Assembly (NCBI GenBank): GCA_964349135.1 | Contig: CAYGFK010000001.1 | Span: 10,717 to 74,716, forward strand | Direction: 5' to 3' | DNA from: an uncultured Candidatus Saccharibacteria bacterium | Lineage (GTDB): Bacteria > Patescibacteriota > Minisyncoccia > Phycocordibacterales > DSPV01 | DNA length: 64,000 nucleotides | Shown here: positions 3,336-39,947 of the stretch, in pieces | Position numbering within the stretch: the stretch's first letter is position 1 | Layout of the letters: every line of letters starts with the position of its first letter | Made by a program: the position numbers and the translations under genes | The notes under the pieces: model-generated | Database searches by the model: none | Seen by the model: only the letters and a program-made list of their open reading frames with translations | Told to the model about the DNA's origin: nothing

Positions 3336-3689
3336 TCAGATAGAGAGATAGTCGTGGTCGTGTACGTCCCCGACAATCCAGTCAGCCACTTCACTCAAGC
3401 CACATACAAATTTCTCGTGAAGCGGGTGTTTTTGATAACGTTCAAAGTCTCGGTCGCTTCGAAACATTGAGAAGAGGACGAGCTCGTAACCTTTTCTGGT
3501 ATCGAGATTTTTTCCTACTATCCAGAAGAGAAGTCCTTTACTGACTCCGCCACATTCCGCGCCAAGGACGTTTAATTCTGCCGCCACCTCCTCTCTTTTA
3601 ATGAACGTCGTCTCATCTCTGAATTTGATAAGTACGGTGTGCCAGCGTGCGGGCATACGGTTTCCTTTCGTTGATGGAGTTCTCTCCAA
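3336..3689 (-). CDS. Dabb (stress-responsive A/B-barrel) domain protein
   Basis: 117 aa. C-terminal pattern DFERYQKHPLHEKFV...VGDVHDHDY is typical of Dabb/YciI-like proteins. Confidence 0.55.
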   Translation of the reverse strand: MERTPSTKGNRMPARWHTVLIKFRDETTFIKREEVAAELNVLGAECGGVSKGLLFWIVGKNLDTRKGYELVLFSMFRSDRDFERYQKHPLHEKFVCGLSEVADWIVGDVHDHDYLSI

Positions 3690-37795: not shown

Positions 37796-38176
37796 CTATT
37801 TGTTAGTAAGCTTGGATATTCCTCTTTCAACTTCAATATGGCAATTCTTACAGAGAAGAATGCATTTTCGTGCTTCTTTGAGAATGCTTTTCCACGAATA
37901 ACTCAACCCCTTCACACTCAAAGAAAATTCTTTCTGTTTTCGGTTTAAGTGATGGAAATCAAGGGCGCCTGCATATTTTTTGTAACCACAAATTTGACAT
38001 TCCCCTCCGAACAAACTGACAAGTCTTTCTTTCTTTTTTCTCCTGTTATTAATAACCCATTCGGACGCGCACTTTCCGCATCGATAGGTCCCATCTTTCC
38101 TTGGAAAATGAGATGATTTCCCGTGATGTCGACAATGTTTAATCATGCGCAAATTATAACACTTGGTGTTAAGCAT
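37796..38176 (-). CDS. HNH endonuclease, free-standing
   Basis: C..C...HH...C..C.H core (CQICGY...FHHLNRK...CKNCH). Start set at MLNTK; the longer track start (38272) would overlap the tRNA 5' exon. Confidence 0.7.
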   Translation of the reverse strand: MLNTKCYNLRMIKHCRHHGKSSHFPRKDGTYRCGKCASEWVINNRRKKKERLVSLFGGECQICGYKKYAGALDFHHLNRKQKEFSLSVKGLSYSWKSILKEARKCILLCKNCHIEVERGISKLTNK

Positions 38177-38232
38177 CTGTAGGCACTGGACTTCATTGAT
38201 ACTCTGGAATAGAATTGTTGTGTTCGTTATAT

Positions 38233-38503
38233 TCCGGGATAGCTCAGCGGTAGAGCAGTCGCCTGTAAACATATTTGCAGCTTTTCACCGAAAGGTGGAT
38301 TGAAAAACTTCGGGATAACGGTGGAGCCCCTCTGGGGTAATACCGTGGGAACCCTTACTAATTAATTAGTTGGGGGCGCCGTAGAGACTAGATACCGAAG
38401 CACCTAAGGTTTTCATAACTATGGTGGTGATATAGTCCACGCCATTGGTAACAATGGATAACGTGTAAGCGATTGGTCGCAGGTTCGAATCCTGCTCCCG
38501 GAG
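38233..38503 (+). tRNA. tRNA-Asn(GUU) interrupted by a 199-nt group I intron (38267-38465) in the anticodon loop, between nt 35 and 36
   Basis: 5' exon TCCGGGATAGCTCAGCGGTAGAGCAGTCGCCTGT and 3' exon TAAGCGATTGGTCGCAGGTTCGAATCCTGCTCCCGGAG. Spliced product has loop CUGUUAA. Close to B. subtilis tRNA-Asn. The intron carries Azoarcus-like P7/P9 elements (GTAGAGACTAGA, CACCTAAGG, CTATGG, ATAGTCC) and ends in G. Confidence 0.8.
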
Positions 38504-38519
38504 TTGCCAAAATTAATAT

Positions 38520-38545
38520 GCCCCGCAAGGGGCGTTTTAATTTTG
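38520..38545 (+). terminator. Rho-independent terminator after the tRNA
   Basis: gccccGCAAggggc followed by GTTTTAATTTT. Confidence 0.6.
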
Positions 38546-38663
38546 TTGCAACTCCGAGGAGAGGACGCAAAAGTCTTTGCGTCCGTCAGGATTCGAAAGG
38601 GTCGTTGGGTTCCCGTTCGTGAAGCGAATGGGATACGACCACCTGCGACGGTAGTCGAGAATT

Positions 38664-38679
38664 CTCCTGCTCCCGGAGT
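38664..38679 (+). repeat. 16-nt direct repeat of the tRNA-Asn 3' end (TCCTGCTCCCGGAGTT; first copy 38490-38505)
   Basis: Exact match read from sequence. It lies in a 290-bp structured noncoding stretch with a GGACGCAAAAGTCTTTGCGTCC hairpin and two CAGGATTCGAAAG elements. Confidence 0.75.
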
Positions 38680-38771
38680 TAGAGTAAGTTTAGCCCCGTT
38701 GCGAGAGCAATGGGGATTTACTTATCTCTCTGCGGGGCAGGATTCGAAAGACGGAGAATACAGTCAACGTA

Positions 38772-38847: not shown

Positions 38848-39489
38848 TTGAAAACATACATATCGTTAGTGCTTGCGCTGTCAGTGTCGTTGTTGTTTGG
38901 CGACGATTCCGACAGAGTTTCAAGTCCAGGAATACTCTTGGGCTACAAAGGCGTCGGACTCGATGGCTACACGTTCAGCCATGATACGCACCCCAACGAC
39001 CCTTTCCTGATGAATTCAGGGCAACCGGGCTCAGCAGGGGAAACCAAACTCGATGACCCGTTGCACTTCTTGGCCGTTGGCCTGACGTATGACGTGCCAC
39101 TGGGTAAGTCATGGACCGTCGCCATAGGAGCTGGCGGTTTATTTATCCCAAACCGGGATGAGCATCAAAATGATAACGATACGCGCCCGGCAGAAAATGG
39201 CGCATTCGTATATTCTGAAGCAAATTTTGGCGTATTCGCGACGGTCGGCTTGTCGTATGATGTCACCAAACGTTGTTACGTTGGCATCGAGGGACAGGTT
39301 GCCGGAATCTTTGTCGAAAGCGGATGGGACCGTTTTAATTCGGATGAGAGAGTTCATTCGAGTACAGAATGGGTTCCGTCTATTGGACCAAAAATTGGTT
39401 ACTGGGTTAATGAACACTTTCTCATGGAGGTAGGCGTTCAGTTTGGCCACTCGGTTGGTGGGACGGTATCGCTCAGATATCGATTTTGA
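38848..39489 (+). CDS. Secreted OmpW-like 8-strand beta-barrel protein (213 aa, TTG start)
   Basis: N-terminal signal peptide MKTYISLVLALSVSLLFG. Alternating hydrophobic beta-strand pattern. C-terminus ...VSLRYRF matches the OmpW-family terminal GYRF/aromatic-end barrel signal. Confidence 0.5.
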   Translation: MKTYISLVLALSVSLLFGDDSDRVSSPGILLGYKGVGLDGYTFSHDTHPNDPFLMNSGQPGSAGETKLDDPLHFLAVGLTYDVPLGKSWTVAIGAGGLFIPNRDEHQNDNDTRPAENGAFVYSEANFGVFATVGLSYDVTKRCYVGIEGQVAGIFVESGWDRFNSDERVHSSTEWVPSIGPKIGYWVNEHFLMEVGVQFGHSVGGTVSLRYRF

Positions 39490-39587: not shown

Positions 39588-39947
39588 ATGCATCGGACTA
39601 CCAGATACATAACGATTGGCACCGGCATCATTGCACCCCTGTCAGTCTCCGCACAAAATTACGATATCTCCACAATCGAAGGCATGGTATCTGCCGTTTC
39701 CGGAATCATTAACACAATATTTCCGGCACTTACGGCTCTCGCCGTATTCATGATAGCGTGGGCGATATTTAGCTTCATTATAAACGCAGGGGACTCGGAG
39801 AAACGGAAGCAAGGATTGATGCACATCATATGGACGCTTATAGGTGTATTTCTCCTTTTTTCCATTTGGGGCCTCGTGAACATCTTGAAAAATACGTTTA
39901 CTCTAGACACAACGCCTCCTCCGCTTCCCACAACGCTCATTCCGTAG
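39588..39947 (+). CDS. Small secreted two-TM protein with a Pro/Thr-rich C-terminus (VirB2/TrbC-pilin-like topology)
   Basis: Signal-like N-terminus ending SVSAQ, two long hydrophobic helices separated by the NAGDSEKRKQG loop, and a TTPPPLPTTLIP tail. Confidence 0.35.
   Translation: MHRTTRYITIGTGIIAPLSVSAQNYDISTIEGMVSAVSGIINTIFPALTALAVFMIAWAIFSFIINAGDSEKRKQGLMHIIWTLIGVFLLFSIWGLVNILKNTFTLDTTPPPLPTTLIP

Follow-up and report, generated by a model that had tools for sequence, protein, structure and literature searches.

A candidate free-standing homing endonuclease gene beside the group I intron of a Candidatus Saccharibacteria tRNA-Asn gene

Can an HNH endonuclease gene that lies outside a group I intron, on the opposite strand, be the homing endonuclease of that intron? 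The question is raised by a stretch of 64,000 nucleotides from an uncultured Candidatus Saccharibacteria bacterium (assembly GCA_964349135.1, contig CAYGFK010000001.1, positions 10,717 to 74,716; the whole stretch is called the window here), in which a small HNH gene diverges from a tRNA-Asn(GUU) gene that is split by an intron without an open reading frame (ORF). A sequence-only reading of the locus had suggested either a free-standing homing endonuclease collaborating with the neighbouring intron or a degenerating mobile element. Having compared the locus with its relatives, we consider it on balance probable that the product of the window gene is a free-standing homing endonuclease with the tRNA-Asn intron insertion site as its target; it would mobilize the intron in trans (collaborative homing). 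This reading is supported by the linkage of the HNH family to tRNA-Asn, by introns that all interrupt the same site, by a sister clade encoded inside that intron, and by invariant catalytic and zinc-site residues under strong purifying selection. Further support comes from a persistent AT bias, low synonymous divergence (dS) of the HNH gene in some genome pairs, tRNA-derived scars, phage relatives in tRNA clusters, tandem fusions and an operator-like element. The features concerned are the following.

37796-38146, minus strand: HNH endonuclease gene, a coding sequence of 116 amino acids (ORF list and homologue alignment)
38153-38172, minus strand: palindrome over an extended -10 box, the putative operator and promoter of the HNH gene (conserved across the loci of the long form described below)
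38233-38503, plus strand: tRNA-Asn(GUU) gene, split at 35/36 by a 199-nt ORF-less group I intron
38233-38266, plus strand: 5' exon of the tRNA-Asn(GUU) gene, positions 1-35, ending in ...CCTGT (U35) (ARAGORN with introns allowed, and sequence; the same exon in 66 loci)
38267-38465, plus strand: ORF-less group I intron of 199 nt in the anticodon loop at 35/36, terminal G at 38465 (Rfam RF00028, fold and homologues)
38466-38503, plus strand: 3' exon, positions 36-73, starting with TAAGCG and with no CCA encoded (ARAGORN with introns allowed, and sequence)

Default ARAGORN and Rfam at its gathering thresholds report no tRNA or RNA gene in the whole 64 kb. When introns are allowed, ARAGORN places a tRNA-Asn(gtt) at 38232-38504 and, at its position 36, a 199-nt intron, written i(36,199), and a local search with RF00028 (group I intron) matches 38257-38458 with 50.8 bits (gathering score 50, E 1e-11), so that the intron-bearing tRNA-Asn and the absence of an ORF from its intron, both noted from the sequence alone, are confirmed. 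The junctions, CTGT/AAAC and ...CGTG/TAAG, obey the group I rules of a U closing the 5' exon and a terminal G in the intron. The P1 helix pairs 38263-38269 (CTGT/AAA) with 38274-38280 (TTTGCAG), and the whole tRNA precursor folds with P1 and the tRNA arms formed (z-score -4.2). Homologues of the intron were found at 159 other loci, the nearest of which span every HNH state. By its RF00028 match, its junctions and its position it belongs to the tRNA-Asn 35/36 group I introns of Patescibacteria.

The HNH ORF on the minus strand, whose stop ends at 37796, has candidate starts at 38146, 38176 and 38272. A protein search returned 184 homologues of about 113 amino acids with 65-76% identity, all aligned from MIKHC, and those that carry a taxon name are all from Patescibacteria (Yanofskybacteria, Nomurabacteria, Paceibacterota). 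Because the homologues begin at MIKHC and the conserved promoter and palindrome occupy 38153-38172, the true start is 38146. The two upstream starts were rejected, since the promoter and palindrome fall within both extensions, and with them goes the earlier placement of the start at 38176. The opposite-strand orientation given by the sequence-only reading holds, but it is the start codon and not the end of the gene that faces the tRNA, and the gap is 86 nt (56 from the ATG chosen then) instead of about 60. In the public gene call, the HNH gene appears as a 158-aa protein (P0001; 37796-38272, L201) that crosses the spacer and the tRNA 5' exon. The same over-extension of the HNH gene and the same failure to find the tRNA are likely wherever the tRNA-Asn 35/36 intron occurs, which is of practical consequence, as default tools miss the tRNA-Asn and public annotations extend the HNH ORF across its gene.

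Alignment with 24 homologues shows an invariant N-terminal Cys/His zinc ribbon (C5, H8, C23, C26) and an invariant HNH core (C50xxC53, D63-F-H65-H66, C95, C99-K-N101-C102-H103, E105 and E107), in agreement with the CxxC...HH...CxxC.H motif read from the sequence before. The Pfam matches stay under their cut-offs (PF21368, 21 bits against 23; PF01844, 13.5 against 21.4) and NCBIfam gave nothing useful for the protein; the PHROG profiles matched clearly (phrog_2255, 'HNH endonuclease', E 2e-25; phrog_3106, E 1.7e-18), which together with the conserved catalytic and zinc-site residues places the protein in the HNH superfamily. In the AlphaFold model (predicted local distance difference test, pLDDT, 92), residues 62-66 and 95-99 form strands, and a helix at 100-107 comes after them. 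The best PDB structures in a Foldseek search, Cap5, Gme HNH, T4 endonuclease VII and the HNH domain of Cas9, match it weakly (E 0.04-0.5, template-modelling (TM) score 0.3-0.4), and a PDB sequence search returned spurious zinc-ribbon matches only.

A profile search of 1.8 billion representative proteins retrieved 26,152 relatives at E ⩽ 1e-3 and 157 at 1e-30, annotated phage HNH endonucleases being among the relatives. Many of the top matches (P0121-P0132) are 200-430 aa long and carry two tandem copies of the whole zinc-ribbon-plus-HNH module. The existence of such fused two-module relatives suggests that the single-module proteins, including that of the window, may act as dimers. Many of the tandem two-module relatives come from GC-rich organisms.

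The linkage of this family to tRNA-Asn was examined by scanning one genome per species (GTDB) with the family alignment, which gave 80 loci, followed by ARAGORN with introns allowed and an exon finder of our own. The Patescibacteria set consists of 72 loci, namely 71 from the species genomes (L001-L070 and L072) plus the window. In 66 of the 72, a mapped tRNA-Asn adjoins or encloses the HNH gene, an adjacency far beyond chance. An intron interrupts 59 of these 66 tRNA-Asn genes (89%) and seven are intronless; the base rate of the tRNA-Asn intron reported for Patescibacteria is 15 of 95 genomes, or about 16% (Nakagawa et al. 2026, PMC13011429). Every intron seen at the HNH-seeded loci lies in tRNA-Asn(GUU) between ...CTGT and TAA... 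and ends in G, that is, at 35/36. The arrangements are as follows.

HNH divergent upstream, at 73-245 nt (73-120 nt at all but L002): 35 loci with an intron, including the window; 3 intronless
HNH upstream on the same strand, at 6-90 nt (at L036 it overlaps the tRNA by 9 nt): 8 with an intron; 4 intronless
HNH downstream of the tRNA: 1 with an intron; 0 intronless
HNH inside a 525-604-nt intron: 15; intronless not applicable

The HNH gene thus stands outside an ORF-less intron, as it does in the window, at 44 loci, 35 of them divergent, 8 with the gene on the same strand upstream and 1 downstream. One further divergent locus (L026) and one further intron-encoded locus (L058) were recognized by one method each, either ARAGORN or the 5' exon alone; the rest of the 72 are contig ends, except L027, which has a tRNA-like remnant only. 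Of 10 sampled loci that span all the main arrangements, 9 have their group I core confirmed by Rfam. The labels Thr, His, Asp, Tyr and Val that ARAGORN gave to some of these genes were rejected as boundary mis-parses of the same Asn 35/36 junction, a kind of error that PMC13011429 notes as well. Four Patescibacteria-type HNH-plus-intron loci, L040 (a 434-kb contig, Ignavibacteriota), L072 (440 kb, Gammaproteobacteria), L055 and L063, carry titles that name other phyla; these could be mislabelled bins, chimeric contigs or real inter-phylum transfers.

A neighbour-joining tree and an alignment of the HNH proteins separate two forms. The long form, to which the window protein belongs, has the zinc ribbon and a Glu at the last metal-site position, occurs in Paceibacteria-type genomes and is free-standing in every case. 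In the short form the zinc ribbon is missing and a His takes that position; this form is mostly intron-encoded, in the P1 loop right after the 5' splice site. Such intron-encoded relatives sit within the same 35/36 intron in Berkelbacteria, Doudnabacteria, Komeilibacteria and other Patescibacteria (the 15 mapped loci plus L058), and are 47-58% identical to the window protein. Woesebacteria loci carry a free-standing short form just 5' of the tRNA. Since free-standing copies (L052, L056/L060 and L072) nest within the intron-encoded clade, shifts between the intronic and the free-standing state happened more than once. The proposal of a free-standing homing endonuclease tied to the neighbouring ORF-less intron is strongly supported by both the intron-encoded relatives and the excess of introns (59/66 against 15/95).

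The long-form genes evolve under strong purifying selection, the ratio of nonsynonymous to synonymous divergence (dN/dS) being about 0.05 (0.03-0.13 in nine unsaturated pairs among 44 full-length long-form genes), with synonymous sites saturated in 937 of the 946 long-form pairs. This ratio and the invariant catalytic residues speak against the alternative of the sequence-only reading, that the window copy is a degenerating mobile element; degenerate copies do exist elsewhere (L034, L047, L048 and L049). The G+C content of the HNH gene is 38% against 49% for the window, and it lies about 8 points under the flanks in 53 of 56 loci, the window included, while tracking the G+C content of the host (r = 0.70). 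In three compared pairs the HNH dS is well under that of the flanking genes (0.5-0.8 versus 1.1-2.4), estimates that are noisy in so short a gene; taken with the pairs considered below, they point tentatively to a gene that descends mainly vertically and now and then passes between relatives.

Fragments of tRNA-Asn that abut the HNH cassette at several loci are scars of recombination or rearrangement in and around the tRNA gene. A 22-nt copy of the tRNA-Asn 3' end, GTTCGAGTCCTGGCCGCGGAGC, is fused to the HNH stop at L009 (about 3349-3372), L014 (about 3343-3366), L047 (about 925-946) and L160, and equals the 3' end of the functional tRNA on the opposite side of the HNH gene. A pseudo 5' exon stands directly 5' of the HNH promoter and palindrome at L049 (1258-1298) and L051 (2940-2975), and L049 also has the intron guide sequence TTTGCAGC 5' of its HNH palindrome. 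When the HNH-less intron loci of the metagenome set were searched for HNH remnants, the only matches were short and weak (tblastn, E 0.003-0.6); they lie in nine ORF-less tRNA-Asn introns of 228-335 nt (L111, L126, L129, L132, L134, L152, L165, L175 and L188), just inside the 5' splice site, and correspond to roughly the last 20 residues of the intron-encoded HNH protein and, in L165, to its first 15; these may be remnants of ORF deletion or conserved intron-core RNA that overlaps the end of the ORF.

Beyond Patescibacteria the family again keeps company with tRNA genes. A short relative fills the tRNA-Gly/tRNA-Cys spacer in Pyrinomonadaceae (L073-L079), and another precedes tRNA-Leu(UAA) in one Nisaea metagenome-assembled genome (L080). 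The closest phage relatives, with 41-48% identity over the full length, lie in the tRNA gene clusters of Felix O1 (L204), between tRNA-Lys and tRNA-Ile, of Cronobacter phage CR3 (L205), 18 nt after tRNA-Asn, and of the crAss-like phage DAC15 (L206). The family as a whole looks specific to tRNA genes. The characterized F-Tfl HNH endonucleases of the T5 tRNA cluster were tried as relatives and rejected, as they gave no tblastn match at E 1e-3.

The window gene is preceded on the minus strand by the palindrome TTAACAC-CAA-GTGTTATAAT (full element TTAACACCAAGTGTTATAAT), which ends 6 nt before the ATG. The family consensus is TTAACAC-N3-GTGTTATAAT, a 7+7 palindrome in which an extended -10 box forms the right arm, at a constant 6-7 nt from the ATG. 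Since this leaves no space for a ribosome-binding site, the HNH mRNA is probably leaderless. The aligned spacers of the divergent loci vary except for two elements, this palindrome and a -10-like box of the tRNA, and the palindrome is kept upstream of the long-form gene in all three arrangements, with minor variants at some loci. Each of the 25 strict matches in the genome loci marks the start of an HNH gene; over 685 kb of metagenome loci the palindrome occurs solely at long-form HNH genes, and the HNH-less intron loci of the metagenome set have none. The 17-nt core is found in the window with 1 mismatch, where 0.15 matches are expected by chance. The half-site GTGTTAA (read on the opposite strand with its flanking base, C-TTAACA) agrees at 6-7 positions with CTGTTAA(G), the anticodon loop of the uninterrupted tRNA-Asn, a likeness that is suggestive only. 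Alternatively, the palindrome might be a relic of invasion by the endonuclease gene, as proposed for I-TevII (PMC3984707), a reading that we disfavour because a relic would not account for such strict conservation.

These observations are consistent with the following course of events. The HNH gene has an extended -10 promoter of its own, 6 nt from the ATG, from which the protein is expressed, the one step that sequence and conservation show. Acting as a dimer, the protein would recognize tRNA-Asn(GUU) genes free of the intron by the sequence around their anticodon loop (...CTGT^TAA...) and cut them there; the resident gene would be immune, since the 199-nt intron splits the target site. The intronless allele of a relative would be cut and then repaired from the copy with intron and HNH, and the two would be copied together because no more than about 120 bp separate the HNH gene from the insertion site. 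If a genome carrying the HNH gene lost the intron precisely, a cleavable site would be recreated, which would help to explain why the intron persists in very reduced genomes. The palindrome, sharing C-TTAACA / TGTTAA-G with the target, would most simply serve as an operator for self-repression, as in I-TevI.

A wider proposal can be put forward tentatively, and we hold it to be a good deal less probable than the homing function itself. The HNH gene and the ORF-less intron might form a quasi-stable module of drive plus immunity in Patescibacteria chromosomes, in which a target-mimicking operator autoregulates the nuclease and intron loss is punished, so that the sole tRNA-Asn gene of a minimal genome keeps a self-splicing intron locked into it. 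The family (phage, Patescibacteria, Acidobacteria) might then be a previously unrecognized class of tRNA-gene-specific homing endonucleases, displaying in nature every intermediate on the Bonocora-Shub route that leads from a free-standing endonuclease to a mobile intron.

Several points weigh against a collaborative homing endonuclease. Cleavage, the identity of the target, intron-conferred immunity, co-conversion, autorepression and the penalty on intron loss are all steps that we infer from sequence. The association is also far from complete when approached from the intron. In an HNH-independent metagenome sample, collected by a tRNA-Asn 5' exon followed by a non-T base (120 loci, 101 with a complete intron-containing tRNA-Asn), the reverse test was limited to the 60 intron loci with at least 600 nt on either side, and 47 of these (78%) have no HNH gene; it lies inside the intron in 7 and beside the tRNA in 6, so that the probability of HNH given the intron is 13/60. 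Intact HNH genes adjoin an intronless tRNA-Asn at six loci (L005, L008, L011, L010, L036 and L052), which means that other means of immunity, or inactivity, must exist. One of these, L036, has the canonical CTCCCTGTTAAGGAG anticodon arm, and the HNH protein therefore cannot cut every uninterrupted allele; in four of the six, three of which are one clade, the 31:39 pair is flipped, which may give resistance. The likeness of operator and target extends over just 6-7 nt, with a rough chance estimate of 0.015-0.07. The low dN/dS together with saturated synonymous sites implies very long maintenance, which is unusual for a purely selfish endonuclease and would fit a host function too, and in three other compared pairs the HNH dS is similar to that of the flanks, as expected of vertical descent.

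Part of this is what a homing endonuclease in a cycle of gain and loss would leave behind. The association is asymmetric, the HNH gene being nearly never without tRNA-Asn and the intron often without the HNH gene, and such asymmetry fits that cycle. The sequence-only reading had treated homologues in relatives without the intron, or introns without the homologue, as refuting it. Co-occurrence is indeed strong from the side of the HNH gene (59/66) and incomplete otherwise (7 intronless partners, 47 of 60 intron loci without HNH), but an all-or-none rule is too strict, as the gain/loss cycle predicts such states.

The best surviving alternative, which we nevertheless judge unlikely, is that the endonuclease targets the tRNA-Asn locus independently of the intron ('intronless homing', as in T4 SegB), the intron being a co-resident or hitch-hiker and immunity arising from sequence variants or from the HNH insertion. 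It would account for an HNH gene tied to tRNA-Asn with or without an intron, given the seven intronless loci with their clade of three that keep an intact HNH gene, and for the phage, Pyrinomonadaceae and Nisaea relatives between intronless tRNA genes, and SegB is a demonstrated precedent (PMC2330249). The share of introns among HNH-adjacent tRNA-Asn genes, 89% against a base rate of about 16% (PMC13011429), and the residence of the sister clade within this very intron are what it fails to explain.

Less probable still is a domesticated HNH/zinc-ribbon protein with a host function, either a palindrome-binding regulator or a repair or maintenance nuclease, inherited vertically and no longer mobile. 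The low dN/dS, a protein identity of 58-73% even though synonymous sites are saturated, the position and promoter/palindrome fixed over many lineages, the G+C content that follows the host and the intact gene kept beside intronless tRNA-Asn would all suit such a role. Against it stand the catalytic residues of a nuclease, all invariant, the persisting AT bias, the patchy distribution (a free-standing copy in only 6 of the 60 independently sampled intron loci), the pseudogenes L034 and L047-L049, the rearrangements around the tRNA with their tRNA-fragment scars, and, in some pairs, a dS under that of the flanks.

In other families, some homing endonucleases also act as maturases, and the closeness of the HNH gene to an intron-containing tRNA could point to a helper at the RNA level, one that assists splicing of the tRNA-Asn intron as a maturase or chaperone, or one that takes part in tRNA processing. 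We regard this as very improbable: homologous tRNA-Asn introns that have no ORF need no protein to self-splice in vitro (PMC13011429), the HNH gene is absent from 78% of intron loci and persists beside intronless tRNA-Asn, and the catalytic residues of a DNA nuclease are kept. That the gene is a chance neighbour, a generic McrA-like restriction or defence nuclease, as the name 'McrA' given by JGI to several homologues would have it, is in effect refuted by the adjacency in 66 of 72 loci, the tRNA-gene context, the lack of a PADLOC match for the protein and its make-up of zinc ribbon plus HNH in 116 aa, with no modification-reading domain.

A homing endonuclease acting on the insertion site of the neighbouring intron, which we continue to favour, can be set beside several known systems. 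The nearest is that of Nakagawa et al. (PMC13011429), who described group I (IA) introns at 35/36 of Patescibacteria tRNA-Asn(GUU) with four intron-encoded HNH genes and showed that a single homologous tRNA-Asn intron and a single one in tRNA-Asp self-splice in vitro. Intron family and insertion site are the same as in the window and the HNH core is homologous (43-58%), whereas the window gene lies outside the intron on the opposite strand, its protein has the extra N-terminal zinc ribbon and a Glu for His at the last metal-site position, and it has the palindromic operator-like element. Endonuclease genes were sought in that study only within introns exceeding 500 bp in length, and introns like that of the window are counted there as lacking one. 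Its authors concluded that most tRNA introns have no endonuclease gene and hence limited mobility, and left the persistence of the introns in streamlined genomes as a question. The paper makes no mention of a 'free-standing' or tRNA-flanking HNH gene, nor do its supplements contain CP066686, CP011213 or HNH; no description of a free-standing HNH gene beside the tRNA-Asn intron was found in the literature searched.

Collaborative homing itself is known from two phage systems, F-CphI beside the ORF-less psbA intron of cyanophage S-PM2 and a second one described by Bonocora and Shub in 2009 (PMC3984707), and a related trans homing is that of T4 mobE and I-TevIII (PMC2790892). The proposed target at the insertion site, immunity through the intron and co-conversion would be common to these and the window. 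The window case differs in that it occurs in bacterial chromosomes, has a tRNA as its host gene and belongs to an old arrangement spread over dozens of species (dN/dS about 0.05), in which the HNH gene stands in several orientations, with a sister clade truly inside the intron. F-CphI is Endo VII-like, whereas the window nuclease is of the zinc-ribbon-plus-HNH type and its cleavage is a prediction from sequence. A nuclease gene likewise stands between or beside tRNA genes in T4 SegB (demonstrated), Felix O1 ORF44/45, CR3 gp262 and DAC15 gp120, but SegB is of another nuclease family (GIY-YIG), and no intron is annotated in the flanking tRNA genes of the other three phages.

I-TevI represses its own promoter via an operator that resembles its homing site (PMC2988022), and the conserved sequence over the promoter of the window gene would resemble its presumed target in the same way (C-TTAACA / TGTTAA-G). 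I-TevI is, however, a GIY-YIG enzyme with a separate DNA-binding domain, while the window element is a 7+7 palindrome, a putative operator with a likeness of 6-7 nt. The locus would extend collaborative homing to a tRNA gene on a bacterial chromosome, with an endonuclease that is unusually stable and looks autoregulated; as a mechanism it would not be new in kind.

An endonuclease just outside the intron would alter the conclusion of limited mobility drawn in 2026 for part of the phylum, and would offer a testable answer to the persistence of the introns in streamlined genomes. The family also provides a natural series in cellular genomes, with the gene free-standing in several orientations, immediately upstream, or inside the P1 loop. 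As a compact nuclease of 116 aa that probably reads the tRNA anticodon-arm sequence and may have its own operator, the protein is an easy biochemical target.

The remaining features of the locus belong to the tRNA gene.

38187-38215, plus strand: promoter-like site of the tRNA gene (TGGACT, 17 nt, TAGAAT), ending 17 nt 5' of the tRNA (consensus scan)
38518-38535, plus strand: terminator-like hairpin 3' of the tRNA, the core of a longer hairpin at 38504-38553

A TATAAT-like box at the position that matches the tRNA promoter of the window is kept across the aligned spacers of the divergent loci. Past the terminator hairpin, within 38504-38760, an element of about 160 nt has at its end a direct repeat of the last part of tRNA-Asn (15 nt, cctgctcccggagtt, at 38491-38505 and 38666-38680), and the same element has inverted T-arm-like copies, caggattcgaaaggg near 38594 and ggcaggattcgaaag near 38738. 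The copy at 38666-38680 was considered as the boundary of a mobile unit of HNH plus tRNA and rejected, because similar 3'-end copies 140-190 nt 3' of tRNA-Asn are equally frequent with the HNH gene (6 of 66 loci) and without it (6 of 62), and hence are not tied to it. L013 and L046 have a conserved version of the element in common, which may have arisen as an att-like scar or a miniature insertion element, or may encode a small structured RNA. The ORF right after the tRNA (38848-39489, 213 aa) has a weak outer-membrane beta-barrel match alone, and a 119-aa ORF two genes past the tRNA (39588-39947) is given as T4SS_pilin (PF18895) in the public annotation; both would fit a surface-apparatus neighbourhood of Patescibacteria and are unconnected to the HNH finding.

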